DNA from: Verrucomicrobiales bacterium
Lineage (GTDB): Bacteria > Verrucomicrobiota > Verrucomicrobiia > Verrucomicrobiales > DEV007
Reading direction: 5' to 3'
NCBI GenBank assembly: GCA_041749135.1
Contig: JBGTBW010000146.1
Span: forward strand, 9,573 to 73,572
Length of the DNA stretch: 64,000 nt
Below are positions 744 through 49,119 of the stretch, in pieces. The notes beneath the pieces are model-generated. The model was not told the origin of the DNA. It saw only the letters and a list, made by a program, of their open reading frames with translations, and did no database searches. Within the stretch, counting starts at the first letter, position 1, and every line of letters starts with the position of its first letter. Made by a program: the position numbers and the translations under genes.

Positions 744-3700
744 CTACTCCCTGACCTCCGCCCTCGCCCGGTAGAATCGAAGGGGGGCGTCGGAGGAGTC
801 AATGTAGACGATCCGGTCGCTGAGGCTGGGCACACGGGCAACCGGTGTCCACGTGATCAGGTCCGACGACGCTTCGATGAGATATTCGGTTCCCGGCCTG
901 GCCGGGAACGCGATGCGATAGTCGCGGGGCGTCTGTGAGGCGTTCGCTAGGGCCGGACTCCCGCCACCCGCGCCGCCCTCGATCCATGGCCCATTGAAAC
1001 CGGCCCCGAAGCCTCCGGGCGCCGTGCGGGCCAACGCTTTGGAGCCGGGGCCCTTCGAGTGGATTTTCAGGTTCCCGCCTCCAAGGGTCTGCTCGACAGT
1101 CCGTCGTCCGTTCCAGTGGCTGGAGAACCAGAGTCTGTCGTCTCGATCCCACACGGCGACCGCCAAGCTGTCGTTCCGTCCGGGTTCACCACGGTCGGTC
1201 AACAGCACCTGCAGGGTCGCCTGCTTATCCACTGTGATCCCCTTGCCCGGCCCGGTAACGTCGGAGATGACAACCCGCGCGGTGAACACGCTGCGGTTGT
1301 CCTGCACCGCGAGCGAGGTGAGCGCGCTGCTCTTGATCTGATACACGCGCTCATCGCTCCGCAACGTCAGGTCCACCGAACCCTGCAGCGTCTTCCCACC
1401 CTGGATGAACTTCGCGTTGAGCCCGAAGTCGAGCTTGGAGCCCGCGTCGCCCGGCACGATCCCATCCGAATCCGACAGCACCAGGAACCCGCCCCCGGTC
1501 ACCATGTCGCCGGCCAAGGGACGGGACACCGTCACCAGCACGTCGTCCTCACGGCTGTCCCTGTCGAACCAGCCTCCGATGATCATTCCGATCGAGTAGG
1601 ACTCCGAATCCGCGGAGCCGATGTCCACCGGCCAATCGAAGGAAACCATGCCGAGTTCCGGAGCATCTGGGTCCGGCGCCTGCACTGGCAGATCCCCGGC
1701 GATCACTAAACCGGTGGTGCGATCGACGAAGGTGACCGTCGCCTTCCGGATGTCGGCAGGATACGGGTCGTGCTCAAGATCGTCCGACGGCAGCGTGGAC
1801 AGATCCCAGACCGTGGCGCGCAGGGTCAGCATCGTCGTGCTGCTGGTGGGCGACGAGGCCCCCTGGAAGAGCACTCCGGCGAAGGAGCTCCGCGCGTCTT
1901 CCGGCAACACCGTGATCTCGAACTCCGCCTCCTCCGTGGCTGCGGTGGCGTCCTCGACCTCGACGCGGAACCGGTAATCGCCCGGCGCAACCCGCGCCCG
2001 CCCGGACAGAATCCACCGGACCGCATTTGCCTCGGTCGCGGTGAGGGCCCAGGACAGGCCATCCGGAACGCCGGGTTCGAACGGCGCCGCATCGTCCGCC
2101 CGCCTCCACGAGATTCGCACAACAAGGTCTTCGCCCGGCGTTTCTGCGTCGCCGGCGACCACGCTCACCGGCGCGATGGCGTCGCTGTACTGCACCGGCT
2201 GTCCGGCCCAATCGACGTCGAGGGCAGGCGGTGTTTGAACACCCCGGAGGTGCACCGTCGCCAGCGCAAACCCGCTCTCCGCACCGCCCGGGTCGCGCAC
2301 AGCGAAGCGGAACTGATCGGTGCGGTACTCGTCCCGCGGGACCACCAATCCGGCCGGCGGGGTGTAATGCACCGTCTCGCCCGACAGGATCACCTCGCCG
2401 AGCGTTCCTTCCGTGTCGATCGCGGCCACCCGCAAGGTGGAACGGTCGTCGTCTGGGTCCTCGGCGTTCGCCAACAGGCTGGCGGTCAGGTCCACCGTGA
2501 CCGGTTCGAGGGCGATCACCGCGTGCGCTTCCCCGGCCATGGGTGACGAATTGACCCCGGTGACGGTCACTGTGACCGTGCCGCGTCCGGTGGCGCCGAA
2601 GGGATCTTCGACGAGGTAGTCGAACTGGTCGGTGGCCGTCTCGCCCTCCTGCAAGCCATCGAAGCGCCTCGCCGGGGAGTAGAAGAATGCGGTTCCTAAG
2701 ACCCCCGCCTGGCCCTGGGTCAGCGAACGTTCCACGCCCGACACGCGCAGTTGGGCGGTCTGACCCGGGTCCGGATCGGCGGCCGTGGCGAGGAGCAACG
2801 CGGCAATCTCCACCGGGTCCTCATTCTCGGCCACCGTGATGGTAACCGGCCCGGCGGTGGGCGCGTCGTTGCGCCCCTGGATGCGGATCGTGACGCGGCC
2901 GGAGGCCGTGGAGCCCTGACGATCGCTGACGGTGTACCCGAAGGCGTCCATCCGTTCCCCGCCGGGCCCGAGCTTCGGACCGCTGCCGGCCGGGTTGTAA
3001 CTGAGCGTTCCATCCGGTGCGAGCGACACGGACCCCAGCACACCGCTGGCGTCGATGGCGGTGATCAGGGTCCGATCGCCCACGTCAGCATCCGTCGCCT
3101 GGGTCAGAATCGCATTGTCGATCACGTTGTCCCCGCTGTTCTCCGGAAGCGCGATGACCAGGTCCGGCGCGGACGGGGGATGATTCTCCCCATGAACCTC
3201 CACCGTCACCCGCGCCGAGGCGCGGGCCCCGTGCACATCCTCGACCACATACAGGAACGAGTCGGTCACTGACGTCCCGGGCGGCAGCGGAAAGCGCCCC
3301 TCCGGATCGTAGTGGAACACGCCGCCGCCCTGGTGCACCACCCGGCCGATGGTTCCCAGCGTGACGACATCGACGATGCCGAAGGTGTCGCCCGGATTCG
3401 AATCCGTGTCGTTGTCCATCACGCTCGGTGTCGTGAGAGCCGCAGTCGCCACCGTGCTGAAGCCAGCGCCCCCATCGTCCACGGCCAGCGGCGGATCGTT
3501 CTCCGCCAGCACCGTCACCGTCGTGTCGCCATCGAGACGCGTGAAGTCTCCCATCGTGACCGTCAGTGTGAACACGGCTGTCTCGGATTCGCCCACGGGA
3601 CGCCGGTACCGGCTGGGAACGAAGACCATCGCCCGCAAGGCCGCCTCGACCGTGCCGGCCGGACCTGCCAGTTCGTACGTGTCCTCGTTCGACCCGGTGA

Positions 3701-6700
3701 AACCGGGCGCGAGGAGCATCCCCTTCCCCGCGTCATCGATGGCCACGTGGACCGCGAGGGTTGTCGTGGCCGGGACTCGCAGTGAAACGCTCTCAAAGGG
3801 CATGGCAGTCTCGCGGTCGGTGATGCTCAGGCTCCGGATCCCGGACGGGGCGGGAAGCCCCGCGCCGTTGAACCACACCTGGTTGGGCCGGCCGAAGCCT
3901 CCGCCGAAGACCAGGTCCAGCGCTCCATCGCGGTTGAGGTCCCCCGCCACGATCGAGGTCATCGCATGCTCCGGTCCCGGCGTGCCTGCCTCTGGTGCGA
4001 AGGTTCCGGCGCCGTCGTTTACCAGCAGGACGGAACGGTTCACCGACTGCCCATCCACGAACTGGCTCTGAAGCACAATCAGATCGAGCGCCCCGCTCCC
4101 GTCGAAATCGCCCAGCGCCGCCCCCTGGACCGTGTTCCACGCGAAGGTCTGCGCCGTGGCCGTGAACTGTCCGGAGCCGTCGTTCAACCAAACCAGCGCT
4201 CCGGATCCGCTCCGCCGCACCGTGAGGATGTCCGCCGCGCCGTCCCCATTGACATCTCCGACCAACGGAAAGGCGCCACTTTCGCCGAGAGCCTGGAGAG
4301 TGTCGCGGAACACGCCGTGACCGTCGTTGAGCCAGACGAGCGTGGGCCCCAAGAACTGCCCGGCCACCAAGTCGAGGCTGCCGTCGTTATCGACGTCGGC
4401 GATCCGCACCTCGGTAAAGGTGCGGTTCGCGAAGCCGATGTCCGCCATGGCCACGGTGGATTCAGTGAACACGCCCGTTCCATCGTTCAGCCAGACCCGA
4501 GCGGCGGTGGTGTTGACCGTCACCAGATCCACGTCGCCATCTCCGTCGAGGTCCGCCGCCGCCACGCCCTCGAACAGGACGTCTGCCAGGGACTGTGAAC
4601 CCTCGGTGAAGCCACCGCTCCCATTGTTGAAGAAGAGCGCCAAGCCGTAGGGCTCCGAACGATGCGTGGTGATCACGTCGAGATACCCGTTGCCGTTGAG
4701 GTCCGCCAGTTGCGCCCTCGAAATGTATTTCGAGCCGACCGCCTGAGTCCCCTCCGCGAATCCCCCGGAGCCGTTGTTGAACCAAACCCGCCCGCCATAA
4801 GGGGCCGGCTGGCCGATATAGCCCAGCGCGTTCGGAACGAACAGGTCCGGATGCCCGTCTCCGTTCAGATCCCCGATAGCGATGCCGAAAGAGTTGTACT
4901 CCTCGTTGCCAATCCGCTGAAGGCTGTCGGTGAACGCGCCGGCTCCCGCCGGAGCCTCGATGACGAACTCCGATAGGACCGGCGCCGGGAGAATTTCGCC
5001 CTGCGCCCCGGTCAGTCCTGTGAGAACCGTCACGGTGACCCGTTCACCCGCGAAAAACCCGGTGTCCGGATCGAGGGTCAGCGTCAGGATCGTCCCGTCC
5101 AGTTCGCTCCGCACTCCGCGCGGTCCACTCTGTTCACCGGCCACCGAGAGGTTGGCCTCCACAGTGGCGGGATTGAGCGGGCGATTGAAACGGAGCACGA
5201 CGGGTTCATCGCCGGGCGCCGCGGGGTGATTGGGCGAAGGAAGCATCTCGACCACGCGCAGGGTCGAGCGCACGTCGAGCGTCACCGTCGCCGGCGCGGA
5301 GGTCCCCAGGCCGTCCGTGGCCCCATAGGTGAACGCATCGGCTCCCGTATGTCCCGGCGCCGGCGTGTAGACGAACGAGCCGTCGCGCCGAAGGGTGAGC
5401 GCGCCGTGAGCGGGCGATGTCACGAGCACGGCGGTGAGCGGATCGCCATCCGCATCGGCATCATTCGCCAGGACTCCCTGCGAGGCGGCGACCATAAAGG
5501 TATCCCCCGCGGGCGCCAGGTAAGGTCCGTCGTCGTCCGCCACCGGAGCGGTATTCCCGATCTTCACCCGGGCAGGCGCCGAGGCCGCCTGCGCATCCGC
5601 GGCCCGGTAGGTGAACACATCCACCCCGGCGAAGCCCGCCCCCGGAGTGTAGGTGAACCCTCCATTCGCGCTGAGGACCACGCTCCCACGCGTGGGAGGG
5701 GTCACCAGTTGGGCCTGCATCGGACCGCCGTCGCCCGGCAGGTCGTTCGCCAGCGGGCCCTGAGCGGCGGCAACGACGACCGGAGACGTTCCGTTGGCCG
5801 GATAAAAGTCGTCGCGGGACACCGGGGCGGACTGATTGAGCCAGACCTCATTGCCGGAGCCGATGGACCGGCTGTTGTTGACCACGAATACGTCGAGGTC
5901 GCCGTCGCCGTCGAGATCCGCAATCGCCGCATGATAGCTGTCCGAGGCGCCCAGCAGCGGGCCAGAGAGGGCGAATCGGGCGGAACCGTCATTGAGCAGG
6001 ACGGCGTCCCCGCCGCCCTGGCCCGCGCCATCGCGGACATCCGCCTGCCACACGTCGAGGCGGCCGTCCCCGTTCAGGTCGCCGAGCCCGGCCCCGAGGG
6101 TGAAGCGCCGGTGAATCTCGTAGGGTGAGCGATGGAAGTTCGCAGCACCGTCGTTGAGCCAGACCTCGTTAGCGCCGGAGTTGACCTGGTGCACAACCCA
6201 GGCGTCGAGGGCGCCGTTGCCGTCGAGGTCCGCCAGCACGACCTGGCGCGCCCACGTGGGGTTGACCACGCCGGACCGTAGCGAGAACCGCGCCCCGCCC
6301 TCGTTGATGAGCAACTGCCCGCCCTGGATGCCGGCAAGGTACACATCCATGAACCCATCGTTGTTCAAATCACCTACAGCACCGGCGGACGCCGACGTGA
6401 TCGCGATGGCGGAGCCGGCATCGAGCGTGAAGTTTCCATGGCCGTCATTCCGCCAGACCCAGGCCCACGTGGCGTTGACTCCCAGCAGGTCGAGCGCTCC
6501 GTCCCCGTCAAAGTCGCCCGCCAGCAGGAAACTGGGCGACCCGAACGGGAGGCTCGACAGACCGAATGTCACGACGTCGGCAGCGGGAAACTCGCCAAGG
6601 CCGTCATTGAATCCGATGCGCAGTTCCGTGCTCCGGCCGCCAAAGGCATTGTCCGCCTGACCAATCAGGACCAGGTCGGGATGACCGTTGCCATCGAGGT

Positions 6701-9700
6701 CCGCCACGAGCGGCGCAGAGCCACGGAAGGCGAGGTTAGGGTATTGAAGACCGAGAGATTCTTCGCGCTCGGTGAACGTGCCGTCACCCTGGTTCAGGTA
6801 AAGGCGCGGATGCGTGTCGCGGTTCCAAACCACCGCTTCGGACGCCCCGTCCCCATTCAGATCCGCCAGCGTCACGAACTCGCTGAATTCCGTGGTCGAG
6901 CTTCCCGCGAGAGTGCGCTCAAACACCGCGCTGCCCCGGGGAACGGCGGCGTGAAACCGCCAGGCGTGAGGCCGCGCAAGCTCGGCCGCCGCGCCGCCCC
7001 GAATGCCAGCCGACACATGGACCGTGATGGATTCCCCGGGAAGGAACGGCGCCGCCGGGACCAGGGTCACTTCCGATCCGTTGACCGCCGCAGTGACCTC
7101 CCGGCGCCCGGTCAGGGACCCGAAGACGTTCAACCGCCCGGCCATCGAGGGCTCGTCCAGGGACTGGCTGAACGTGATCCGCACCGGACCGTCCGCCGGG
7201 GCGTCCGGCGTGTGGGCCGCCGGGTCCACCGACACAATCTCCAGCCGCTCGATGACCCGCAGCGACACCGTCGCCGGCCCGGACCAACTCCGCCCGTCGG
7301 AGGTCCGGTAGGTGAAGGTATCGACGGCGGCAATGCCTGGTTCCGGGGTGTACTGGAACGAGCCGTCGGAGGTGAGGAACAGCGTCCCGTGCGAGGGCGG
7401 CGTGACCAGTTCGACCACCAGACCGGCATCGCCGTCCGGGTCGCGGTCATTGGCCAGAACGCCCTCGGCGGCCGGCACGATCCGCGTCTCTCCTTCGAAG
7501 AGCGCGTAGACGTCGTCCTCGGCCACCGGCACGGCGTTCCCCAGCTTGACTCGCGCCGAGGGATAGAACCCATAACTGTACGGTGTGCCGGCGCTGTACA
7601 CGAAGGTGTCGGACCCGGGATGGTCAGGGTTGGGCGTGTAGCGGAACGCCCCGTCCTGCAGGAGCTCTAGCGTCCCATGGACCGGCGGGGTCGCCACCTG
7701 CGCCCACGCGGTTGCGGTCGCCGGCAGCTCCAGGTTCGGATCGAAATCGTTGGCCAGCACCCCCTCCGCAACCGGCGCCTCGATCACTTCGGCGCCGTCG
7801 TAGACATAGAAGTCGTCCGCCAGGATCAGCGCCCGGGCGCCCAGGGCGACGCGGATCGGACCGGACAGATAGCCGATCTCGTCCGCCCGCACCCGGTAGG
7901 TGAAGGCGTCGATGCCGCTGCTCAAGGAGTCGAACGATCGATACTCGAATCCCCCATCCAGATGCAGCGTGAGCGTGCCGTTGGCCACGTTGTCGACCAG
8001 TTCGGCGATTAGCTCGAGTCCGTGGGTGTTGAGATCGTTGGCCAGGACCCCGCCGCCGGCGTCCACGTCCAGGTAAAAATAGGCGTCGACGACGTTGTTG
8101 AGATCGAACGACACGAAGGAGTAGTGGTCCGGTCTCGCCTCGGGAGCGTCCGCCTCGCCCGTGACCTGGATGGTGACGGTGACCGGGTCCGATTCCAGGT
8201 CGCCGTCGGTCAGGAAGTAGCGGAACGAATCAGTCCCCCGGTAGGACGGAGGGGGTGTGTAGGTGAAACTGCCGTCGGCCCGCAGTTCCAGTTCACCATG
8301 TTCGGCATACACAGGCACGCGGGCCGCCCAGCTGCCGTCCGGCCAGTCGCCGAAGTATTCGAGGTCCTCGTACGGCGCCCCTGGCCACCGGGTCAAAAGA
8401 TCGTACAAGCGGCCCTCCACCCAGACATCGGTACGCACCGAAAAGTCGTCACCGTCCGGGTCCGATGCCCCCTGCAACAAGCCATGGGAGCGTGGCAGCT
8501 CGATCACGCCGTTCTTTTCGATTGCGAAGGTCTGCGGAGCTGCCGGCACGGGTGGCCGGTTGCGGATGATCCCGAAGGTCCGGGTCTCCGTGGGGAAGAA
8601 GGACGAACCCGCCGCGCTGGTCAGGGTGTCCCGCACCGTGACGTTCACCGTTTCGCCGCGGATAAACCTTTCGGAGAAGCTCAGGGTTGCCTCCCGTCCG
8701 TCGCCGGACAGCGCGACGGAGAAGTCCTGCCGCCCGCTGCTTGAACCGCTTACTTCGACGTGGGATCCCACGGCATCCCCGGTCACCGGTTCGTCGAAAG
8801 ACAGCACCACTGGGGTCCAAGCCTCACCTTCGTCGCCCGGCTCCGGGGTCAGCGTCAGCCAGTTGAGTCGTGAGTGGACCGTCAGAGTAACAGTGATCTC
8901 CTCCGACACCCGCCCGTTGAAATCCTGAATCCGGTAGATGAACCGGTCCTCGCCGTTGAAGAAAGTGTTCGGCAGGTAGGTGAAGCTCCCGTCCTCGAAC
9001 AGAGACAGGGAGCCGTGCTCTGGATCGGTGACAAGCCCGGCACGGGGCGAGTCGCCGAAGTCATTCGCCAACACGCCGTCCGCAGCGTCCACCGTTAGCA
9101 GGATGTCCTCGATCCCCTCGTAAGCCTCCGGCTCCCCGGACGGAGCCACGCTCTCGAACGCGCCGATGTCGCGCGGTCCGCCGAGCGCGCGAAGAACTCC
9201 CCTCTGATCCACGGCATCCCCGGGAAAGAGAGTCCCCGGCGTCCCGTTGTCCCGCGCTGGACTGCCTGTACGCAGCGCGTGAGTGCGGGTGCGGCCCCCG
9301 TTGTGTTCGAGGGGCCCCAAGCCGGGATCCTGCGCCGTCCGGAACCGCGCGGCTTCGGGGAGGAGCAAGTCGCTCAGCAACGCCGCCTGCCCGCCCGTCC
9401 CGTCGGTATCGAGGTTGTAGCCGGTTGAGGTGATGAAGGTCTGGAGGGTCAGGGTGCGGTTGTAAACGTCATCCGGCCGATTGTGGGCTAGAATGGTCCC
9501 GGCGATGTTGACTGCCGACACCCCAAGGACCTCCGGCTCCAGGCTCGCCTTCAGCGAACTCATCGCCGTCGAGTAGATCCCCCCGCCCTGCCGGGTCAGG
9601 CCGTTGATGGCCTCATTGCCGTGGATCGTGCAGTTGAACAGCGTGGCGATCGCCGTGCCCTCAGTGAAGCTACCGTTGTAGAGGCCCCCGCCGAAGGCCG

Positions 9701-12368
9701 GCAGCGGGATGCCCAGCGTGCCCTCGCCGTCCACCGTGTTGCCGGTCAGCGTGCAGTTCTGCATCGTCACGGTGCTGATGAGGATCGTGCTGGACCCGGT
9801 GCACTCGTTGTAGACTCCCCCGCCCTTCGACTTCCCCTTCGCGATGTTCCCGCTGACGGTGCATCCGGTGAGGATCGCCTGGCCGCCGTTCTCGTTGCGC
9901 AGCCCGCCCCCGTAGGCCGCGATGACCCCGGAAACACGGTTGTCCGCCAGGGTGCTGTCCTGGGCCAGCAGGACGCCGTAGTAGTCGTTGGCGATGGCCC
10001 CGCCGCCCCCGGAGGTGTTGTCGTTGAGATCGCAGCGCAGCACGCGGACAAGGCTGCCGAAGGTGGTCTTCATCGCTCCGCCGCTCGACAGGAACAGCGC
10101 CTCCGCCTCGTTCTCGTTCAGTTCAGAATCGGTCACTTGCGTGAAGGAGGCGAAACTGTGGACCGCTCCGCCCATCGCCAGGATCGTCGTGGCGCGAACC
10201 CGGTTTTCGTTGAGCTTCGAGCCGGTCACCTCGAGGGCGCTGAAAAATGAACTGATGCCCCCGCCATGGCTGCCCAGCGCGCTCGCCGATTCGTTGCCGG
10301 TCAGCACCGAGTTCCGGATCTTCAATAGCCCGAGGTCGGTGTGAATGCCGCCCCCGAAAACCAACGCCCGCGGCGTGGCCAGGTGATCGGCCACGTAACA
10401 GCGCAGCCAGCCGCCGTCCACCCAGCAGACATCCATCAGATGGCGCGCGGCGGCGACTCCGGTCCCGGCCTTGTTCCCCTCGATGACCGAGTCCATCACC
10501 TCGGTGACGGGTGAGCCGAGCCCAAGCCAACCGGCAACATTGGAGAAGGGATCGTTGCCCGCGGAGCCGTCGCCCAACTGGTCCTCCATGTATTCTTCGG
10601 CCGATCCGGCCTGTTCGGCGCGGGTGGAAGACCTGGCGACGTACTCGGCCTCGACCGCCTCGGCCTGGGATTCGCTGGTCGGATCCAAGGGCGGCGTGAC
10701 ATCGGCGAGGTCCGACCGATGCCCGGTCAATTCCTCCGACGCGGTGCGTCCTCCGCCCACGCGCAGGGTGGAGACGTTCAGGCCGCTGCTGCTGATGCCA
10801 CCCCCGTTCCGTGCGGCCGCGTTGTTGCGGATGATGCTATTTCGGACCGTCAGCCGCGCCGCACCGCGGTTGTAAACGCCGCCCCCCTCGCCGCCGAAGT
10901 AATCGAACGCCCGGCAGTCGCGCACCTCGCAGCGGTCCAGCACCACCGTGCCCTGGTTGTAGATTCCGCCGCCGCTCGGGGCCAGACCGTCGATGACGGT
11001 GAGATCCTCCAGATGGAGCGTCCTGCCCGGAAGCACGGTGAACACCGATCCCAGCAGTGCGCCCGAAACGAAGGTCCGCCCGATGCCCTGACCGCGGATC
11101 GTCAGGTCGCGATCCACGATGACGTTGTCGTAGTACGTCCCGGCTTCGAGGCGGATCTCGTTGCAGCGCGGGTTGTCGAGCGCCGGCAAAAGATCGCCCA
11201 TATGCGGTGGAGCAATGACGAGCGCGGTGTCGTCCGTGAAGCCCCCTGTGAAGTCGAGGACCCCAAGGCTGCCCCAACCGGCGTTGTTTGAATAGTACCA
11301 ACCCACTCGCCGGGTCCCGCCATGCCCTCGTGCCAGCACATCGAGCGGCTCGTAGTGGTGAATGGGATCGTAGCCGCTGCCGCCATCGAGCAGTTCCCCC
11401 TGCGTGATCGTTCCCGTCGGCAAGAGGCTCGCGGTGAACCCGACCTTGACGGTCGCGCGCGCCTTAGCCTGCCGTCCTCCCCGGGGAGGCAGCGTCATCG
11501 ACACCGGGTCCGTGGACAACTGCGCCCCGGACAGTTCCCAAGCCGTGTCTCCCAGCAGATTCGCGACTCGGCCATGTCCCGAGCTGTCCGTCGCCACATT
11601 CCCGGTCCCGTCATCCATCCGCCAGTACGCAATGAGACCGGGCTCCGTGACCGCAAGCTGACCGTTCATGTTTCCGGCGATCTGCGACGGCGTTCGCGCT
11701 ACGGTCCAGATCCGGACTTCGTCTACGCTGCCATCAAGGTAGCTCCCCGGACAAAACCCGATCGTGACCGGGCTGTTGTTCGAGCCTTGCGGCCGGATCA
11801 GCTCTTTCCAAGGCTGGCCGAACGCGTTGAGTTGGGGCGACTTCGCCATGAACACTCCGTTCACGTAGAGCCGAGCCTCCGGAATGGACGCGTCATACAC
11901 TGCCGCCAGATGCACCCACAATCCGGCCGGGATGTTCCAAGGGTACGCATCGAGATAGCTGTTTGCGGCATTCAAATCGAATACCGGCACGCCGTCGCGC
12001 CGGAGCCCTAACAACCACTCGCCCGGCCCCGGCGCATGTCTCCAGCCCGGCCGCGACATCTTGGCCACCGCCGGACTCATGCCGCCCAGCTCGGCTTCAG
12101 CATAGCGGACCATCCAGGCCTCGATCGTGAAGCTGTCGTCCGGTCCGATCGGAATCCCGTGCGCCTCCGCCTTCGAGGTGACCCCATTGAAGAGCAGGGC
12201 TCCTCCGGCCACGTCCTGGGCTCGGGCGTCCGGCATGGCCAAGCTTGCCCAGACCACGGAAACCACCAGCGCCGCGCGGAGCCAGGCGTGCCGCACGCGT
12301 CCGGAGGGGGTTGCCAGTTCGGCATGACAGGGGCCGTCGCCGGCCTCAACAAACGTGTGTATTCTCAT
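744..12368 (-). CDS. Giant (~3,870 aa) secreted adhesin-like protein. Signal peptide, LamG/concanavalin-like domain, parallel beta-helix repeats (GGGIYN/GGGVYN/GGGLYN), many FG-GAP/VCBS repeats (DLDGDGxxDL), tandem cadherin-like VLANDxDxDGD domains, C-terminal FYR tail.
   Basis: 4,019-codon ORF in the six-frame track. A likely true start is the ATG at 12368 (MRIHTF...AWLRAALVVSVVWASLAMPDARA signal-like segment), which overlaps the stop of the upstream receiver gene (ATGA). Repeats are read directly from the translation: ADLNGDG, DLDGDGDLDVFVVN, GVLANDRDPDGD (x6+), beta-helix GGGxYN repeats, LamG motif DGSVDEVRIWTVARTPSQI. Confidence 0.85.
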   Translation of the reverse strand: MRIHTFVEAGDGPCHAELATPSGRVRHAWLRAALVVSVVWASLAMPDARAQDVAGGALLFNGVTSKAEAHGIPIGPDDSFTIEAWMVRYAEAELGGMSPAVAKMSRPGWRHAPGPGEWLLGLRRDGVPVFDLNAANSYLDAYPWNIPAGLWVHLAAVYDASIPEARLYVNGVFMAKSPQLNAFGQPWKELIRPQGSNNSPVTIGFCPGSYLDGSVDEVRIWTVARTPSQIAGNMNGQLAVTEPGLIAYWRMDDGTGNVATDSSGHGRVANLLGDTAWELSGAQLSTDPVSMTLPPRGGRQAKARATVKVGFTASLLPTGTITQGELLDGGSGYDPIHHYEPLDVLARGHGGTRRVGWYYSNNAGWGSLGVLDFTGGFTDDTALVIAPPHMGDLLPALDNPRCNEIRLEAGTYYDNVIVDRDLTIRGQGIGRTFVSGALLGSVFTVLPGRTLHLEDLTVIDGLAPSGGGIYNQGTVVLDRCEVRDCRAFDYFGGEGGGVYNRGAARLTVRNSIIRNNAAARNGGGISSSGLNVSTLRVGGGRTASEELTGHRSDLADVTPPLDPTSESQAEAVEAEYVARSSTRAEQAGSAEEYMEDQLGDGSAGNDPFSNVAGWLGLGSPVTEVMDSVIEGNKAGTGVAAARHLMDVCWVDGGWLRCYVADHLATPRALVFGGGIHTDLGLLKIRNSVLTGNESASALGSHGGGISSFFSALEVTGSKLNENRVRATTILAMGGAVHSFASFTQVTDSELNENEAEALFLSSGGAMKTTFGSLVRVLRCDLNDNTSGGGGAIANDYYGVLLAQDSTLADNRVSGVIAAYGGGLRNENGGQAILTGCTVSGNIAKGKSKGGGVYNECTGSSTILISTVTMQNCTLTGNTVDGEGTLGIPLPAFGGGLYNGSFTEGTAIATLFNCTIHGNEAINGLTRQGGGIYSTAMSSLKASLEPEVLGVSAVNIAGTILAHNRPDDVYNRTLTLQTFITSTGYNLDTDGTGGQAALLSDLLLPEAARFRTAQDPGLGPLEHNGGRTRTHALRTGSPARDNGTPGTLFPGDAVDQRGVLRALGGPRDIGAFESVAPSGEPEAYEGIEDILLTVDAADGVLANDFGDSPRAGLVTDPEHGSLSLFEDGSFTYLPNTFFNGEDRFIYRIQDFNGRVSEEITVTLTVHSRLNWLTLTPEPGDEGEAWTPVVLSFDEPVTGDAVGSHVEVSGSSSGRQDFSVALSGDGREATLSFSERFIRGETVNVTVRDTLTSAAGSSFFPTETRTFGIIRNRPPVPAAPQTFAIEKNGVIELPRSHGLLQGASDPDGDDFSVRTDVWVEGRLYDLLTRWPGAPYEDLEYFGDWPDGSWAARVPVYAEHGELELRADGSFTYTPPPSYRGTDSFRYFLTDGDLESDPVTVTIQVTGEADAPEARPDHYSFVSFDLNNVVDAYFYLDVDAGGGVLANDLNTHGLELIAELVDNVANGTLTLHLDGGFEYRSFDSLSSGIDAFTYRVRADEIGYLSGPIRVALGARALILADDFYVYDGAEVIEAPVAEGVLANDFDPNLELPATATAWAQVATPPVHGTLELLQDGAFRYTPNPDHPGSDTFVYSAGTPYSYGFYPSARVKLGNAVPVAEDDVYALFEGETRIVPAAEGVLANDRDPDGDAGLVVELVTPPSHGTLFLTSDGSFQYTPEPGIAAVDTFTYRTSDGRSWSGPATVSLRVIERLEIVSVDPAAHTPDAPADGPVRITFSQSLDEPSMAGRLNVFGSLTGRREVTAAVNGSEVTLVPAAPFLPGESITVHVSAGIRGGAAAELARPHAWRFHAAVPRGSAVFERTLAGSSTTEFSEFVTLADLNGDGASEAVVWNRDTHPRLYLNQGDGTFTEREESLGLQYPNLAFRGSAPLVADLDGNGHPDLVLIGQADNAFGGRSTELRIGFNDGLGEFPAADVVTFGLSSLPFGSPSFLLAGDFDGDGALDLLGVNATWAWVWRNDGHGNFTLDAGSAIAITSASAGAVGDLNNDGFMDVYLAGIQGGQLLINEGGARFSLRSGVVNPTWARQVVLADLDGNGALDAWVVHQVNSGANEVWLNDGAANFHRSPYEIHRRFTLGAGLGDLNGDGRLDVWQADVRDGAGQGGGDAVLLNDGSARFALSGPLLGASDSYHAAIADLDGDGDLDVFVVNNSRSIGSGNEVWLNQSAPVSRDDFYPANGTSPVVVAAAQGPLANDLPGDGGPMQAQLVTPPTRGSVVLSANGGFTYTPGAGFAGVDVFTYRAADAQAASAPARVKIGNTAPVADDDGPYLAPAGDTFMVAASQGVLANDADADGDPLTAVLVTSPAHGALTLRRDGSFVYTPAPGHTGADAFTYGATDGLGTSAPATVTLDVRSTLRVVEMLPSPNHPAAPGDEPVVLRFNRPLNPATVEANLSVAGEQSGPRGVRSELDGTILTLTLDPDTGFFAGERVTVTVLTGLTGAQGEILPAPVLSEFVIEAPAGAGAFTDSLQRIGNEEYNSFGIAIGDLNGDGHPDLFVPNALGYIGQPAPYGGRVWFNNGSGGFAEGTQAVGSKYISRAQLADLNGNGYLDVITTHRSEPYGLALFFNNGSGGFTEGSQSLADVLFEGVAAADLDGDGDVDLVTVNTTAARVWLNDGTGVFTESTVAMADIGFANRTFTEVRIADVDNDGSLDLVAGQFLGPTLVWLNDGHGVFRDTLQALGESGAFPLVGDVNGDGAADILTVRRSGSGALVWLNDGSGQFTATAQTFAWNTVQGAALGDFDGSGALDLIVLQSQFVDGQSVNRSVLLVNDGAGTFAPEAGTPGPEHAMTSIVAGDLNRDGALDLVFGGGFGRPNQVWFNGAGLPAPSGIRSLSITDRETAMPFESVSLRVPATTTLAVHVAIDDAGKGMLLAPGFTGSNEDTYELAGPAGTVEAALRAMVFVPSRYRRPVGESETAVFTLTVTMGDFTRLDGDTTVTVLAENDPPLAVDDGGAGFSTVATAALTTPSVMDNDTDSNPGDTFGIVDVVTLGTIGRVVHQGGGVFHYDPEGRFPLPPGTSVTDSFLYVVEDVHGARASARVTVEVHGENHPPSAPDLVIALPENSGDNVIDNAILTQATDADVGDRTLITAIDASGVLGSVSLAPDGTLSYNPAGSGPKLGPGGERMDAFGYTVSDRQGSTASGRVTIRIQGRNDAPTAGPVTITVAENEDPVEIAALLLATAADPDPGQTAQLRVSGVERSLTQGQAGVLGTAFFYSPARRFDGLQEGETATDQFDYLVEDPFGATGRGTVTVTVTGVNSSPMAGEAHAVIALEPVTVDLTASLLANAEDPDDDRSTLRVAAIDTEGTLGEVILSGETVHYTPPAGLVVPRDEYRTDQFRFAVRDPGGAESGFALATVHLRGVQTPPALDVDWAGQPVQYSDAIAPVSVVAGDAETPGEDLVVRISWRRADDAAPFEPGVPDGLSWALTATEANAVRWILSGRARVAPGDYRFRVEVEDATAATEEAEFEITVLPEDARSSFAGVLFQGASSPTSSTTMLTLRATVWDLSTLPSDDLEHDPYPADIRKATVTFVDRTTGLVIAGDLPVQAPDPDAPELGMVSFDWPVDIGSADSESYSIGMIIGGWFDRDSREDDVLVTVSRPLAGDMVTGGGFLVLSDSDGIVPGDAGSKLDFGLNAKFIQGGKTLQGSVDLTLRSDERVYQIKSSALTSLAVQDNRSVFTARVVISDVTGPGKGITVDKQATLQVLLTDRGEPGRNDSLAVAVWDRDDRLWFSSHWNGRRTVEQTLGGGNLKIHSKGPGSKALARTAPGGFGAGFNGPWIEGGAGGGSPALANASQTPRDYRIAFPARPGTEYLIEASSDLITWTPVARVPSLSDRIVYIDSSDAPLRFYRARAEVRE

Positions 12369-12766
12369 CTGACAGGTGTTGATGGAGTGGGTAGGTTCCA
12401 AGGAGTGCCCGAAGCGATCAGGCCATAGAGGGGTTGAAGGTCGTCCTTGAGGAAACAGGCAAGGGCCCCGGTCTGCGCAGCGCGCTCCCGAAGCACCGCG
12501 TCGTCGAACTGGCTGACCAGAACGATGCGCGCCTCCGGGAACCGGCTCAGGATGGCGCGGGTCGCCGAAAGGCCGTCCACCGGAGACATCTGAATGTCCA
12601 TGATCACCCAGTCCGGCTGCACCTCGGCGTAGCGGCTTACCGCCTCCGCCCCGCCTTCCGCCTCGAAGACCTCGCTGCCCAGCGGACTCAGCAGCCCGCG
12701 CAGCAGCAACCGCGTCGGCGGATGATCGTCCACCACAAGGATCCTGGCATTTCCCAAAGTGGCCAT
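12365..12766 (-). CDS. Stand-alone CheY-like receiver (REC) domain protein
   Basis: ILVVDDHPPTRLLLRGLL...DWVIMDIQMSPVDGLSATRAIL...RIVLVSQFDD has the phospho-acceptor Asp context. ATG at 12766. Its TGA stop overlaps the ATG of the giant adhesin gene (ATGA at 12365-12368). Confidence 0.7.
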   Translation of the reverse strand: MATLGNARILVVDDHPPTRLLLRGLLSPLGSEVFEAEGGAEAVSRYAEVQPDWVIMDIQMSPVDGLSATRAILSRFPEARIVLVSQFDDAVLRERAAQTGALACFLKDDLQPLYGLIASGTPWNLPTPSTPVR

Positions 12767-12940
12767 GACCGCGGATCGTGACACAACTCCCGCCGCCGAA
12801 CATCGGAGGGGATGCGTAGAAAGGGCTACGGGTGGTTGCCTACGTAGCGCTACGGAGGGGACGCTCGCCGCCTCGATGAAGTGCGCCACCGACAGGGTCC
12901 AGGTGGGGCGCCAGCGTTTCAGCGGACCCGGATCCGACCG

Positions 12941-13594
12941 TCACAACCTCGACCGGTTCGCGAAGGCGAACTTAAGCAGGCTGTGGGCGCCCTCGAGGTG
13001 CAGCTTGTGGCTCATGTTCTGCCGGTGGGTGTCCACGGTGCGCACGCTGATGCCGAGCAGATCGGCAATCTCCTTGGTGGTCTTGTCGTCGGAGATAAGG
13101 AGCAGGATCCGCCGTTCCGCAGCCGTGAGCCGCTCGATGCCCGGCTTCTCGCGCTTCAGAGCCCTTCGTTCTTCGGCCCGGCGGGCGACCAACCCGGAGA
13201 GGGTGGGGCTGATGTAGGTCCGGTCGTCGAGGACGTATCGGATCGCGGTGAGGACATCCGTCACGGCATTCTCCTTGAGCACGTAGCCGCGGACGCCGAG
13301 ATCCATTGCCGCCTCAAGGAACTCGGGATCCTCGTGCATCGTCAGGAGCACCAGCCTTGTCGGGTGGTCTTCCTCGCGCAGCACCCGCGCCACCTCCAAG
13401 CCGGTCCGTTTCGGCATGCGCACGTCCAGGATCGCCACCGCCGGACGACGCGCCCGGATCAACGCCAGCGCCTCCTCACCGTCTCCGGCCTCCCCGACCA
13501 CGCGTATCGAAGGCTCCTCCCCAAGCACATCCACCAGGCCGCGGCGGAAGACCGGATGATCATCAGCAATGATCAGTTCGTGCGGCGCAGTCAT
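12941..13594 (-). CDS. NarL/FixJ-family response regulator (REC + LuxR-type HTH)
   Basis: LIIADDHPVFRRGL...AILDVRMPKRTGLEVAR...LLTMHEDPEF; C-terminal LTAAERRILLLISDDKTTKEIADLLGISVRTVDTHRQNM (LuxR HTH). The start ATG overlaps the upstream kinase stop (ATGA at 13591-13594). Confidence 0.85.
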   Translation of the reverse strand: MTAPHELIIADDHPVFRRGLVDVLGEEPSIRVVGEAGDGEEALALIRARRPAVAILDVRMPKRTGLEVARVLREEDHPTRLVLLTMHEDPEFLEAAMDLGVRGYVLKENAVTDVLTAIRYVLDDRTYISPTLSGLVARRAEERRALKREKPGIERLTAAERRILLLISDDKTTKEIADLLGISVRTVDTHRQNMSHKLHLEGAHSLLKFAFANRSRL

Positions 13595-16500
13595 GGATCA
13601 GAGAGGACGGGCTGAGCGAGTGGCACGAAGATTTTCACCCGGACGCCGGTCCCTGGACGGGACTCGAACTCGATGCGGCCTCCAATCGTACCGACCCGTT
13701 CGCGAAGGCTCCGCAGGCCGAAACCGGCCCCCGGCGAACGGAGGTCGAACCCGCAGCCGTCGTCGCGGATGAGGGCTGCAAGTCGGTCGCCTCCCCGGCG
13801 GACGCTCACGGAGGCGGAGCGCGCGCCCGAATGTTTCGCGATGTTGGTCAGGCACTCCTGCACCGACCGGAAGAAGTGGATCTCCGCGGACTTGGGCAGG
13901 GCGCCGTCCAGGTCCTCCAAGTCGGTATTCACCTCGATGCCCGACGCGTCCCCCAGTCGGCGGGCGATGTGGGCGATCGCCTGCGTCAGGCCGAGTTCAT
14001 CGAGCTGGAAAGGTCGAAGTTCGTGCGCCATGGCACGAACTTCGCGAAGGGATTGCGAGGCGAGCTCAGAGACCTGGGAGAGTTCCTGGGACATCCGCCG
14101 CCCCTCACCCTCATGACGAAGCCCGAGCAGGGCGCGATTCTTGATGACTAGCAGGTTCTGCCCGAGGCTGTCGTGCAGCTCCGCCGCCAGCCGACGGCGT
14201 TCCTGTTCCTGCGACTCCATCAGGCGCCGCGAGAACTCATGCTGAAGCCGGCGTTCCCGCTCCAGACGAGTCACCCGCGTGCCGTAGCCCAGGGCCAGCA
14301 GGCTGGCAAGCGCCCCGGCACCCGCCGCCCGGAACCACCACGTCTGCCACCAGGCCGGCCGGATGGTCAGCGCCACCGTGCCCGCCGTCTCGCTCCAGAC
14401 CCCGTCGTTGTTCCCGGCCATCACCTCGAATCGGTACCGGCCAGGCGGCAATCCCTGGTACGAGGCCACGCTTTCGCCGCCCACCTCTCGCCACTCGGTG
14501 TCGAAACCGGTCATGCGCCACCGAAAATGCACCCCCGACGGAGCCGCCAGGCTGATGCCCGTGTATCGGATGTCCACGCGTCGCGGACCTGGCGGTACTG
14601 TCACGGACGCAACCGGTCCCGGCTCCCCCTGCGCTACACCGTCCACCAACACCTCCTCGACCAACACGCGGGGCGGATGGAGGTTTCGCGGCAGACGCGC
14701 CGGGTCCACCACGGCCACACCGTCCACCGTCGCGAACCAGAGCCGCCCGTCGCGCGCCCGCAATGCCGAGGGATATCCGGAGGCGCTCTGGCCCGACGGC
14801 AGCCCATCGACCTCGCCGTAGGCGGTGGGATGAACCCGAAGCGTCTCTCCACGCAGGTGCGCGTCGACTCCGGCGCGGGACAGCCGGAAGACTCCACGGT
14901 TCGATCCAAGCCAGATCGAGCCTTCCCGATCATCAAGGATGCTCGTCACCTCCGCCTCGCCGAGTCGATCCCCGGCGTCGATGCGGTGAATCTTCTCGTC
15001 GCGCCAGAGGGCGAGACCCAGCCGGGTTCCGATCCATAGGGTACCCTCGCCCTCCGCATGCAGAGAACGCACCCCCGGGCTTGGCAGTTCTCCCTCGATC
15101 CGCGTCACCACCCCGTCGCGGAAATGCAGCAACCCCTCGTCTCGCATCCCAATCCACATTCCGCCGTCCGGATCGCGCTCGAGGACGTGCATCGCGTCGC
15201 GAGGGACTTCCCCGGGTCCCGGTTCCAAAGCCCCTGTCGCGTCGTCCCGGCGCCACAAGCCGTCCTCGGCGCCCAACCACAATGTTCCGGCCGCGTCCTC
15301 GCACAGCGTGCGAATGAACAAACTCCGGGCATCGGTCCCGCCGGTGCCGAAAACCTCGATACGCCCGTCGGCGTCGAGCGCGAAGTATCCCGCCCCGTAT
15401 GTTCCAAACCAGATTCGGCCGTCTCGTCGCATGACCGCGGCCCAGGCGTTCTGAAGCCCCGAATCGCCGGGAATCGACACCCCCGACCCGTTGATCACGG
15501 CCAACCCACCGTCCAGACGACCCGTCCAGATGCGTCCGGCCGCATCTTCGGCGATGGTCAGCGGCATCAGGGCTGGCGGAGGGAAGTCGCGGCCCCGGTG
15601 CAGCATCCGAAAGACCCCCGGCCGCACTCGCACCAGACCACCGCCGTTGGTCCCTACCCAGAGGTTGCCCTCCCCGTCCAGGGTCATCGCACGCACCGAC
15701 GCCGCGGGGAACCCCTGCTCCACCCCCACCCGCTGCATGACACCGGTGCTCCCGTCCAGGCGCACAAGGCCCGCACGCCAGCTTCCGATCCAGAACTCCC
15801 CAGGCGCCTCCTCGATCAGCGCGCAGGCGCCACGCACCTCGGCAAAGTGCAGCACCTCCGGCTCCGCTTCCCCGAGGCGAATGCCGGTGATCGAATCGCT
15901 ACGCAATAGCCAGACCCCCCCGCCAATCCGCGGCGACAATACATCGAACCTCCGGACGCCATCCCCGGCGCCCGTCGACCACTTCGTCCAGGTCTCCCCG
16001 TCAAATCCGAACAACTCCTCCTCCGTGCGCAGCCAGATCCAGCCCGCCACCGCCCGGTCGTTCACCATCCCCGTCACTGGCAGTTCCGACGGCGGCCCCG
16101 CGATCCGCGAAAAGCGCTGTTCATCGAACCGCCACAGCTCGCCGGACACCGTGGCAAACACCATGGACCCGTCCGCACCACGCACTCCACCCCGCGCAAG
16201 GCACCGTTCCATCGGCCAGCCCGAGTTGGCCTCGAACGTGCCGTACCGCCCGTCCCGCATGCGCACCAGTTCACCCCGTTCCATAGAAATCCAGATATCG
16301 CCATCCGCCCCCGCCGCCATCCGGAAACTCCGGTCGCTTACCATCCCGGGTTCGCGCCGGTCGAACAGCCGGAACCGGACCCCGTCGAAGCGCGCCAGGC
16401 CGCCAGAAGTGCTGACCCAGAGATACCCATCGGAAGTCTGCTGGATCGCATGGATCACGTTATCCGGCAGACCGTCCTCCACCCGCCATACCCGAACCGA

Positions 16501-16686
16501 GTAGGGCGCGACTGGCGCGGCGGCCTCGATACGAGGCTCGGTCAGTAGCGTTCCCCCCAACAATACGAGGAACACCCGTCCAATCCACGGGCAACGTGCC
16601 CCACGACCCGACGCCCTGGCCTTCGAGACACCGCCCTTCCAAGGTTGCTCTGGAAAGACAGAGAACGATGTGGGCGCTTGCTGCAT
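13591..16686 (-). CDS. Sensor histidine kinase with a large periplasmic two-component-regulator beta-propeller/Y_Y_Y-type sensor region, one TM segment, a HisKA_3 dimerisation domain and a HATPase_c domain
   Basis: 1,031 aa. Repeated propeller-like units (DGxLWIGT, GGLxRxD). TM segment WWQTWWFRAAGAGALASLLALGYG. H-box LAAELHDSLGQNLLVIKN (HisKA_3). C-terminal ATPase motifs (DDGCGFD, GFGLRSLRERV). Confidence 0.8.
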   Translation of the reverse strand: MQQAPTSFSVFPEQPWKGGVSKARASGRGARCPWIGRVFLVLLGGTLLTEPRIEAAAPVAPYSVRVWRVEDGLPDNVIHAIQQTSDGYLWVSTSGGLARFDGVRFRLFDRREPGMVSDRSFRMAAGADGDIWISMERGELVRMRDGRYGTFEANSGWPMERCLARGGVRGADGSMVFATVSGELWRFDEQRFSRIAGPPSELPVTGMVNDRAVAGWIWLRTEEELFGFDGETWTKWSTGAGDGVRRFDVLSPRIGGGVWLLRSDSITGIRLGEAEPEVLHFAEVRGACALIEEAPGEFWIGSWRAGLVRLDGSTGVMQRVGVEQGFPAASVRAMTLDGEGNLWVGTNGGGLVRVRPGVFRMLHRGRDFPPPALMPLTIAEDAAGRIWTGRLDGGLAVINGSGVSIPGDSGLQNAWAAVMRRDGRIWFGTYGAGYFALDADGRIEVFGTGGTDARSLFIRTLCEDAAGTLWLGAEDGLWRRDDATGALEPGPGEVPRDAMHVLERDPDGGMWIGMRDEGLLHFRDGVVTRIEGELPSPGVRSLHAEGEGTLWIGTRLGLALWRDEKIHRIDAGDRLGEAEVTSILDDREGSIWLGSNRGVFRLSRAGVDAHLRGETLRVHPTAYGEVDGLPSGQSASGYPSALRARDGRLWFATVDGVAVVDPARLPRNLHPPRVLVEEVLVDGVAQGEPGPVASVTVPPGPRRVDIRYTGISLAAPSGVHFRWRMTGFDTEWREVGGESVASYQGLPPGRYRFEVMAGNNDGVWSETAGTVALTIRPAWWQTWWFRAAGAGALASLLALGYGTRVTRLERERRLQHEFSRRLMESQEQERRRLAAELHDSLGQNLLVIKNRALLGLRHEGEGRRMSQELSQVSELASQSLREVRAMAHELRPFQLDELGLTQAIAHIARRLGDASGIEVNTDLEDLDGALPKSAEIHFFRSVQECLTNIAKHSGARSASVSVRRGGDRLAALIRDDGCGFDLRSPGAGFGLRSLRERVGTIGGRIEFESRPGTGVRVKIFVPLAQPVLSDP

Positions 16687-17150
16687 CGTGAGATCCTTGT
16701 AAGAAAACCCGCTCGAAAGCAGCCCGCAAATACAACCTCATCTCCCCAGAATCACCCCCAACAGCGGGAGAGCATCCTGAATGTCCTTTACCTTAAACTG
16801 CAGGAATTTCCATGAGCCAGGTGGAGTGAGACCGCGGACGCGGTCTCTTTAGTGCGACGCTTCGCGGCGCTTTCCCACGCGCGCCCGGCCCGTGAGGATG
16901 AAAACGATGAAATCCTCCAATTCACCGAAAAGAGCGCCCAAGGAGCGCGAAACGCGTCGATTTTTCCTTGACTGAAGCGCCGGTTCCGGCGGGATTTACC
17001 GGAGTGAGCCAGGATGCCCAGTCTGCAGCTCTACCTCCCCCCAACCGCCTCCTCTGACCGAGCGGGACCGGCAACTTTGAAAATCGAATTCCTGCTCTTC
17101 GACGATGGTTTTCTGAGCGTGCAGCCATGTGTGGAAGGAGAAACGGCGTA

Positions 17151-49116: not shown

Positions 49117-49119
49117 CCC

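Follow-up and report, generated by a model that had tools for sequence, protein, structure and literature searches.

The window analysed here, a stretch of 64,000 nucleotides (nt) of contig JBGTBW010000146.1 from Verrucomicrobiales bacterium, contains four co-directional open reading frames (ORFs) on the minus strand, which lie head to tail and encode a sensor histidine kinase (HK), a LuxR-type response regulator (RR), a single-domain receiver (REC) and a giant secreted protein. HK, RR and REC represent a conserved, apparently uncharacterised three-component family, of which the window is a clear member. An operator-like element is located in front of the REC gene, and the comparative evidence for both the cassette and the operator, drawn from sequence, is strong. 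Control by RR of an operon composed of REC and the giant protein is considered probable. The complete model, in which the sensor acts through RR on this operon and REC feeds back as a phosphate sink, is about evenly balanced between being right and being wrong; the role of REC as a phosphate sink, taken separately, is plausible and falls somewhat short of that. Each component is of a known class, and the distinctive part, the role of REC, is what we infer.

The kinase–regulator–receiver cassette and its relatives

The HK gene (16686..13591, minus strand; 1031 amino acids) and the RR gene (13594..12941, minus strand; 217 amino acids) overlap in an ATGA at 13594-13591, which joins the kinase stop and the RR start. 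HK is composed of an N-terminal signal or anchor (residues 38-48), an extracytoplasmic part with a double beta-propeller and Y_Y_Y (approximately residues 49-778), a second, Trp-rich transmembrane (TM) helix (residues 779-802, nt 14281-14352), and the H-box ELHDSLGQ (residues 836-843, nt 14158-14181) within HisKA_3, after which HATPase_c follows and the protein ends at residue 1031. The Pfam matches are Reg_prop (4.5e-36), Y_Y_Y (2.4e-13), HisKA_3 (4.8e-12) and HATPase_c (1.9e-10). Residues 327-782 of the sensor match the periplasmic domain 4A2L of the BT4663-type hybrid two-component system (HTCS) with an E-value of 4.3e-39, and the top solved-structure matches of the kinase core are DesK and VraS. 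The HK family comprises more than 6600 proteins at E<1e-20; the best 120 matches are all of about 1000 amino acids and have the same architecture as the window HK, and the named members among these 120 belong to Verrucomicrobiae, Blastocatellia, Pyrinomonadaceae and other Acidobacteriota.

RR is represented by the domains Response_reg (2e-24) and GerE (3.8e-12), with the receiver residues D13, the equivalent of D57, T85 and K107, and with the recognition region ISVRTVDTHRQNMSHKL (nt 13001-13081); its closest solved structures are DevR, NarL, VraR and DesR. By domains, motifs and adjacency, HK and RR are predicted to form a two-component system of the HisKA_3/NarL class.

REC (12766..12365, minus strand; 133 amino acids) contains Response_reg as its only Pfam domain (2.8e-19, residues 9-108), has no output domain and ends in a short Pro-rich tail. 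The phospho-acceptor pocket, D13, D14, D57, S85 and K107, is intact; D13, D14, D57 and K107 do not vary among 14-16 family members, and S or T is found at position 85 in all but one. Since the active site is invariant across the family, phosphorylation of REC is likely to matter. CheY proteins are the closest solved structures (E 1e-26 to 1e-28), followed by VraR/LuxR-type receivers, and REC is classified by its residues as a CheY-like single-domain response regulator that should be phospho-competent. Above about 40% identity, its homologues are single-domain proteins that group in a clade of their own, marked by the signatures PDWVIMDIQM and LKDDL, and the nearest sequence relatives beyond this family are receivers of NarL/FixJ-type regulators. 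The receiver of RR, in contrast, belongs to a paralogue clade with the signatures DDHPxFRxGL and LTMHxxE; the two clades are old and separate.

The same four genes are present in a near-identical contig. In the loci L003 and L004, in which REC is 73-74% identical to that of the window, the gene after HK-RR-REC encodes an orthologue of the giant protein (71-74% identical across more than 3300 amino acids). A relative with 57% REC identity has a LamG/fn3 protein of 3171-3194 amino acids after REC; in a relative with 56% identity, RR-REC precedes an FG-GAP protein of 961 amino acids; a Verrucomicrobiales metagenome-assembled genome (MAG) with 47% identity has the order STAS-HK-RR-REC, followed by LamG proteins of 602, 442 and more than 2500 amino acids. 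The distant locus L171 (REC 41%, HK 37% identity) encodes a downstream protein of 4065 amino acids collinear with the window giant at 39-44% identity, so this pairing of REC with the giant is old.

A metagenome scan yielded about 45 further loci of the REC family. HK, RR and REC occur together in 30 loci, 26 of them non-identical, as determined by tblastn and ORF mapping; the hosts include named Verrucomicrobiales, Acidobacteriota (Pyrinomonadaceae, Terriglobia) and Ignavibacteria MAGs, and at least three phyla are represented. Variants of gene order include RR-HK-REC (L104), an inverted RR (L171), cargo between RR and REC (L105) and REC-cargo-HK (L129). Among five kinase-anchored contexts, picked without reference to REC, REC is the third gene in three (L171, L173, L174) and is not in this position in L170 and L175. 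REC, regarded as an orphan in the preliminary description, is accordingly the third member of a recurrent cassette, the downstream gene of which varies and is sometimes missing from the same strand. The synteny comparison proposed there found the adjacency of REC and the giant kept in L003, L004 and L171. A functional link between the two proteins is upheld by this adjacency; a specific attachment of REC to the adhesin is not, because the downstream gene varies by locus.

The pattern derived from a 16-sequence REC alignment was too degenerate in a scan of a genome collection and returned generic NarL-type regulators; of its results, only loci L010-L014 were useful. In a profile search with the REC alignment against 1.84 billion representatives, multi-receiver proteins swamped the top of the results, which gave no usable family size. 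Full-text searches found no literature on this kinase-regulator-receiver arrangement, its operator or the link to a giant protein, which is not proof of novelty.

The operator-like element upstream of REC

The gap between RR and REC is 174 nt long and contains an operator- or promoter-like element (12854..12799, minus strand). In the window, its pentamers are CGTAG at 12854-12850, CTACG/CGTAG at 12847-12840, CGTAG at 12830-12826 and CTACG at 12819-12815, so that the element contains CGTAG, CTACGTAG, CGTAG-N6-CTACG and TCCGAT. The TCCGAT box (12807-12802) ends 35 nt before the REC ATG. The layout common to the loci comprises two pentamer half-sites that form an imperfect palindrome, a spacer of about six bases, a third half-site oriented like the first, and a CTCCGAT box, which is CTCTATT in loci of low GC content. 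The element aligns in register across most related loci, though some show no evident copy, and the spacing between the box and the REC coding sequence hardly varies, the end of its GAT being 58 nt before codon 9 in most loci. Between the window and its two closest lineages the blocks of the element are invariant, while the surrounding non-coding DNA cannot be aligned, which represents a phylogenetic footprint.

An nhmmer profile of the element gave one match per locus, always upstream of REC, in the loci that fit the CGTAG-type profile, and no other match in the 64-kb window. When the window and its two closest relatives were left out of the profile, 12846-12801 was still the sole significant match in the 64 kb (E 1.8e-6; the next match had E 0.58).

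NarL-type regulators with a receiver and a GerE helix-turn-helix (HTH) domain typically bind inverted repeats. In loci from other phyla the layout is kept with different half-sites: the element of an Acidobacteriota genome reads TGTGTGTAAACACACA-N6-CGTGTGTTCC-CTCTATTC, that of L171 reads ATACCCTCAAAAGGGTAT-N6-ATACCGCC, and GGTAG-N-TACC repeats are found in a Verrucomicrobiales MAG. The recognition helix of RR varies along with them. RTV[DE]THRQN is paired with the half-site CGTAG; RTVERHRAN with a third half-site TGTGTAG, the palindrome half still being CGTAG (CCGTAGAA); RTVENHRM[HN] with GAGTAG; KTVENHRNN with AGGTG; and THRRN with [AG]GTAGAAAAATACC. The half-site thus appears to track the helix of the RR encoded in the same locus, as expected of a dimeric LuxR/NarL-type HTH and its operator. 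An RNA hairpin is not a suitable reading of the element, because the third, directly oriented half-site is not what a hairpin needs.

A 174-nt gap with an operator-like element between RR and REC points to LuxR-type transcriptional control with REC as the first cistron. A scan for intrinsic terminators, of a simple kind that is uninformative for this organism, found none between RR and REC, and its terminator-like sites were at chance level. The element is also kept at REC in L097 and L099-L103, which have no same-strand gene downstream, and L173 likewise has a stand-alone REC, with a less clear element. Since the element is retained at REC in loci without cargo, and REC is in every case the first cistron, REC itself would be a regulated output and not an appendage of the adhesin.

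Gene starts, the giant protein and other downstream products

The giant protein (12368..744, minus strand; 3874 amino acids) starts on the stop codon of REC, in an ATGA at 12368-12365. Its full ORF, 12803..744, has an in-frame ATG at 12368, and the 145-codon upstream extension (12803..12369, minus strand) runs in an alternative frame over the REC gene and its leader. GC content at codon positions 1/2/3 across the REC region is 0.70/0.48/0.78 in the REC frame and 0.78/0.70/0.48 in the frame of the extension; the adhesin of the same genome has 0.67/0.51/0.83, so it is the REC frame that carries this coding signature. The first 12 residues from ATG 12368, MRIHTFVEAGDG, are conserved as MKTHAMVEAGTG in L003 and L004, synonymous changes included, and the giant-protein ATG of these two loci is located 2 nt past the REC stop. 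The ATG at 12803 lies within a conserved non-coding box, CTCCGATG, and is not conserved, because other loci read CTCCGATT or CTCTGATT there; no start equivalent to it was found in the orthologous loci L003 and L004. Around 12368 the local GC content falls to 0.45 (window, 0.625), and the 3874-residue product is also what an independent public gene call predicts. These features support ATG 12368 as the predicted start of the adhesin and mark the 145 codons 12803-12369 as probably non-coding. The preliminary description, which had given the four co-directional genes with their domains, both ATGA overlaps and the preference for Met 12368 over the extension to 12803, is borne out by the coordinates and Pfam domains, by the codon-position GC content, by the N-termini of the orthologues and by the non-conserved ATG 12803.

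Initiation at GTG 12296, from which the signal peptide would be shorter and canonical, was rejected: L003 has no start codon at the equivalent position, the 12 residues from ATG 12368 are conserved, and GC content at the GTG is 0.75. The missing Shine-Dalgarno (SD) sequence before the adhesin was also dropped as a sign of coupling. The organism is poor in SD sequences, most genes of the window being without one, and their absence here is therefore uninformative on coupling.

The REC start is ATG 12766 according to the orthologues: the N-terminus MATLGNARILVVDD matches MARSGNPRILVVDD and MAHSGNAKILVVDD of the 73-74% identical proteins, with the common pattern MA..GN..ILVVDD. The public call for REC is a protein of 123 amino acids (P0001) starting at GTG 12736, which loses strand beta1; ATG 12766 is the predicted true start. 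Ahead of the REC ATG by 5-6 nt, the window, L003 and L004 all carry the unchanged block TCACGATCC (window 12771-12779, minus strand), with flanking leader sequence that differs between the three; in a mostly SD-less organism, this block could be an element of the leader or of initiation. In L007 (205-219) and L093, the stop of a four-codon upstream ORF, ATGCTCGGCCCATGA (MLGP*), overlaps the REC ATG; this ORF is absent from the window.

The 4-nt ATGA is the commonest overlap in bacterial operons, and for this reason the overlap of REC with the giant gene is, on its own, statistically unremarkable. Among non-redundant loci with enough downstream sequence, ATGA joins REC to the next ORF in about 10 (the window, L007, L008, L094, L098, L104, L110/L115, L116, L118 and L119). 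This recurrence, at independent loci with non-homologous downstream genes, exceeds chance. The next ORF is 0-5 nt from the REC stop in about five more loci (0-2 nt in L003, L004, L090, L092 and L122) and 11-220 nt away in most others, while in L097, L099-L103, L107, L112, L011 and L173 there is no same-strand gene after REC and a convergent one is found instead. ATGA is present in only about one quarter of the family; tight coupling is common and is not defining.

The giant protein of the window has Pfam matches to Laminin_G_3, Beta_helix, Big_9 (4.7e-118), Cadherin_4 (2.3e-90), Cadherin_5 (4.2e-84), FG-GAP_3 and Big_5. The NCBIfam matches are to the tandem-95 repeat (3.9e-94), with partial matches to tandem-95, VCBS and the C-terminal region of BapA/Bap/LapF, the last below the cut-off. 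Its layout, approximate because it follows the best stretches of the Pfam and NCBIfam matches, comprises an extended signal peptide (residues 1-50, nt 12219-12368) with the AXA-like site ARA|Q; a LamG lectin-like domain assigned by Pfam (residues 66-231, nt 11676-12173); a right-handed beta-helix with choice-of-anchor-Q (approximately residues 400-1073); many tandem-95/Big_9/cadherin-like units with Big_5 modules; two FG-GAP/VCBS regions; a post-COAP-1 domain (residues 3623-3770); and an un-annotated C-terminal module of about 75 residues (nt 747-971), which ends in RFYRARAEVRE. Unusually, about 27 residues of the signal peptide precede the hydrophobic core (AWLRAALVVSVVWASLAM, then ARA|Q); the signal-like segment with the ARA|Q site is conserved in orthologues. 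No RTX (HemolysinCabind), PEP-CTERM or type IX secretion system (T9SS) tail was found in the giant protein, and no secretion-system genes, those of a type I secretion system (T1SS) included, were found among the ORFs scanned in the window. The label ‘adhesin’ is reasonable for a protein with this domain content.

The C-terminal module of about 70 residues, which ends in RFYR, RFYK or RYWR and has no Pfam or NCBIfam match, was also observed in otherwise unrelated secreted proteins. It is carried by the window giant (747-971, minus strand), a second window protein (23167-27222, minus strand) and proteins of L007 (626-10210), L119 (10384-13221) and L129 (4781-8287); in the second window protein, a LamG/PA14 protein of 1351 amino acids, the ending is GYYRGVRR. 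The module might serve for sorting or anchoring proteins in these phyla.

About three quarters of the proteins encoded downstream of REC start, as judged by eye, with a signal peptide or lipoprotein signal, and their domains are all of extracellular type: PATR/Big_5, a sialidase-type lectin, PKD with PI-PLC-X, C1q, an L-type lectin, DUF11/DUF7933 with a beta-helix, FG-GAP_2/HYR, a glycoside-hydrolase-like protein with a T9SS tail, and one type with five LamG domains together with Big_9, cadherin-like and PA14 domains. Collagen-repeat proteins of L109 and L112 are located upstream of REC.

Two further protein families were observed next to REC. A secreted family of about 350-670 amino acids without Pfam matches is encoded directly after REC, or directly after the first gene downstream of REC, in three unrelated loci (L008 10402-12210; L090 2641-4647; L116 2235-3278); L008 and L116 share the N-terminal block ...Q.GWNAV, and L008 and L090 the C-terminal block NPF.HRYHP...TGL. 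In one sub-clade, a lipoprotein of about 310-335 amino acids (N-terminus ...C..., then PDVVAVVGG) immediately follows REC (L090 1830-2756; L092; L094 610-1536; L125; L130). Its members in L090 and L094 have the common C-terminal block FHIVRL/FYIVRL, and in L090 the lipoprotein gene precedes an ORF of 668 amino acids and then a LamG/Big_9/PA14 giant of more than 2250 amino acids. Going only by N-terminal resemblance, one could guess at a dedicated periplasmic chaperone.

Proposed mechanism, alternatives and significance

In the proposed model, the double-propeller/Y_Y_Y sensor would detect an external ligand. A glycan is the likely ligand, because the sensor is homologous to HTCS sensors and the targets are lectin-like. 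The kinase would autophosphorylate on the His of HisKA_3 and pass the phosphoryl group to the NarL/LuxR-type RR encoded by the overlapping gene. Phosphorylated RR would bind the array of palindrome and third half-site at 12854-12815 and activate a promoter approximately 35-40 nt upstream of the REC start. A single transcript would then carry the REC gene first and the gene of the giant protein second, so that both products are made together. REC would compete for, or drain, the phosphoryl groups of the kinase as an inducible phosphate sink, which would set a threshold for the expression of a very costly protein or limit its duration. Feedback on the same kinase is the most economical role for REC, because REC is predicted to be phospho-competent and has no output domain. 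The ATGA overlap would tie the output of the sink to that of the cargo; the need for the overlap in an SD-poor organism is left either way.

Several points weigh against this model. All of its support at the level of the HK-RR-REC family comes from sequence, which gives neither the sign of REC action, negative or positive, nor the donor kinase of REC. The covariation of half-site and helix was judged by eye and is uncorrected for shared ancestry. A simple sigma-70 scan of the region found no promoter-like site, although such a scan is uninformative for this organism, and a canonical -10 element is a poor match to the CTCCGAT/CTCTATT box. In a comparison of the specificity helices of REC and RR as a proxy for a shared kinase, helix alpha1 of RR was almost invariant across loci. 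The locus L170, from the Verrucomicrobiae MAG GCA_019634625.1, is as close to the window as L004 (HK 71-73%, RR 87% identical), and REC and the giant are absent from it; a gene of the AAA_14/DUF4143 type (an nSTAND-like NTPase; 13054-14977) directly follows RR, which suggests replacement or loss of REC and the giant. The distant locus L175 (HK 36%) also has HK-RR without REC. Because these HK-RR relatives have no REC, the third component appears to be dispensable.

As an alternative to the sink, phosphorylated REC could be a forward effector that acts on a cytoplasmic partner and turns on export, anchoring or glycosylation of the co-expressed surface protein. REC almost always precedes secreted proteins, often in tight coupling, and there is precedent for single-domain receivers acting through protein-protein contact (PMC12802240). 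This is the closest viable form of the suggestion in the preliminary description that translation or secretion of the adhesin is under phospho-dependent control, for which as such no supporting feature was found, the operator in the RR-REC gap suggesting transcriptional control. The downstream proteins are, however, non-homologous and differ in their signals (Sec, lipoprotein, T9SS C-terminal domain, RFYR module), no partner gene is conserved with REC, several loci have REC without cargo, and no secretion-system genes were seen near the locus among the ORFs scanned; an effector role is considered unlikely. REC could also heterodimerise with RR through the dimerisation surface of NarL/VraR/DesR-type receivers and poison or assist DNA binding. 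The closeness of NarL/FixJ-type receivers outside the REC family and of VraR/LuxR receivers among the top structure matches would agree with this, and the three half-sites of the operator suggest higher-order assembly, but the old, separate clades of REC and the RR receiver have different conserved surfaces, and heterodimerisation is rated slightly below the effector role.

It is improbable that REC belongs to another pathway and shares the operon merely through genome compaction: single-domain receivers are common and promiscuously placed, and L170 and L175 manage without REC, but HK-RR-REC co-occurs in at least three phyla, the REC clade is specific to the family, and an RR-type operator stands at fixed spacing before REC. 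Least credible of all is gating of initiation at the overlapping adhesin start by the phosphorylation state or the translation of REC, for although the ATGA recurs at the REC junction in about 10 loci and the start region is AT-rich and weakly structured, the overlap couples the flow of ribosomes and not a phosphorylation state, REC has no RNA-binding or output domain in Pfam, no Rfam or structured RNA element is present at the junction, and in three quarters of the family REC and the next gene are separated by up to about 200 nt. An RNA switch was likewise dropped as a reading of this region: the Rfam search of 12000-17300 found no RNA family, and in folding the RNA of the REC/adhesin junction was less structured than shuffled controls.

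Among known systems, the HTCS sensors of Bacteroides of the type found here recognise glycan fragments. The window sensor resembles the HTCS (BT4663, PDB 4A2L/4A2M; 3V9F) in its Reg_prop propellers, Y_Y_Y and TM helix. HTCS proteins, however, fuse a HisKA kinase, a receiver and an AraC-type HTH and control polysaccharide utilisation loci, whereas the window HK is of the HisKA_3 type and ends after HATPase_c, the GerE-type RR is separate, and an extra REC and a giant-protein target are present. Lacking the fused receiver and AraC domains, the window locus does not qualify as an HTCS. The kinase core, the HDxxxQ motif and the REC plus GerE HTH composition are shared with DesK-DesR, NarX-NarL, VraS-VraR and DevS-DevR; unlike these pairs, the window has a very large, propeller-based sensor and a third, single-domain receiver behind an RR-type operator.

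Caulobacter LovK-LovR is a phosphate-sink circuit with one kinase and two receivers. Such an arrangement is an established sink motif, which provides fast signal termination and thresholds, and in Sinorhizobium meliloti CheA-CheY1/CheY2 it likewise comprises one kinase, an output RR and an output-less phospho-competent receiver (PMC4214558). In contrast to these circuits, the putative sink of the window is apparently induced by the output RR and co-translated with the target. In Myxococcus xanthus, the single-domain regulator EpsW, which activates the glycosyl transferase that initiates exopolysaccharide (EPS) synthesis, is another stand-alone receiver tied to a cell-surface product (PMC12802240). 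A chemosensory kinase phosphorylates EpsW, which has one particular enzyme as its binding partner; REC, by contrast, is without a conserved partner gene, and the products encoded beside it are secreted proteins that are not homologous to one another.

Long Ig/cadherin-like and VCBS/FG-GAP arrays are common to the window giant and giant adhesins of the BapA/LapF/LapA type. The window protein differs from them in having a Sec-type signal, LamG, a pectate-lyase-like beta-helix and the RFYR module and no RTX or T1SS. With its Sec signal, and with neither RTX repeats nor T1SS genes among the window ORFs scanned, it falls outside the T1SS Bap/RTX adhesins. PEP-CTERM/exosortase proteins also differ, the C-terminus ...RFYRARAEVRE of the giant being free of PEP-CTERM.

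The cluster is bordered upstream by a divergent gene with PEP-CTERM (17127-17714, plus strand) and downstream by a convergent Ig-domain ORF (24-521, plus strand). Elsewhere in the window, a protein of 1831 amino acids (33594-39089, plus strand) contains DUF3686 (‘ATPase involved in DNA repair’, E 2.5e-161), DUF7902 and AAA_5, and is preceded by an ORF of 723 amino acids without a Pfam match (31403-33574); this could be a defence or repair module. A PSCyt2/PSD1 (DUF1549/DUF1553) and DUF1501 gene pair (47002-50457, plus strand) and a bacterial RNA-binding protein of the RRM_1 type (41460-42089, plus strand) were also observed. The PSCyt2/PSD1-DUF1501 pair, PEP-CTERM and RRM_1 are markers that fit a genome of the Planctomycetes-Verrucomicrobia type.

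Taken at its widest, and as a possibility that we put forward with more doubt than confidence, HK-RR-[operator]-REC would be an undescribed, widespread and portable module in Verrucomicrobiota, Acidobacteriota and their relatives, in which a glycan-type sensor switches on genes of giant lectins or adhesins and REC, induced by RR and made from the cargo's own mRNA, frequently by the same passing ribosomes, serves as a built-in expression meter, draining the kinase in proportion to the surface protein made and so giving pulsed or thresholded deployment of very costly proteins. If REC is an RR-induced sink, the cassette would contain natural inducible negative feedback inside a two-component system, a case of interest to signalling theory as well as to circuit design. 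Work on the DNA specificity of LuxR-type regulators could draw on the many natural pairs of operator and recognition helix in the family. Verrucomicrobiota and Acidobacteriota are abundant in soil and water, and their giant secreted proteins are many, with regulation almost undescribed; for these proteins the cassette offers a predicted operator, a predicted target operon and a clear genetic handle on REC.

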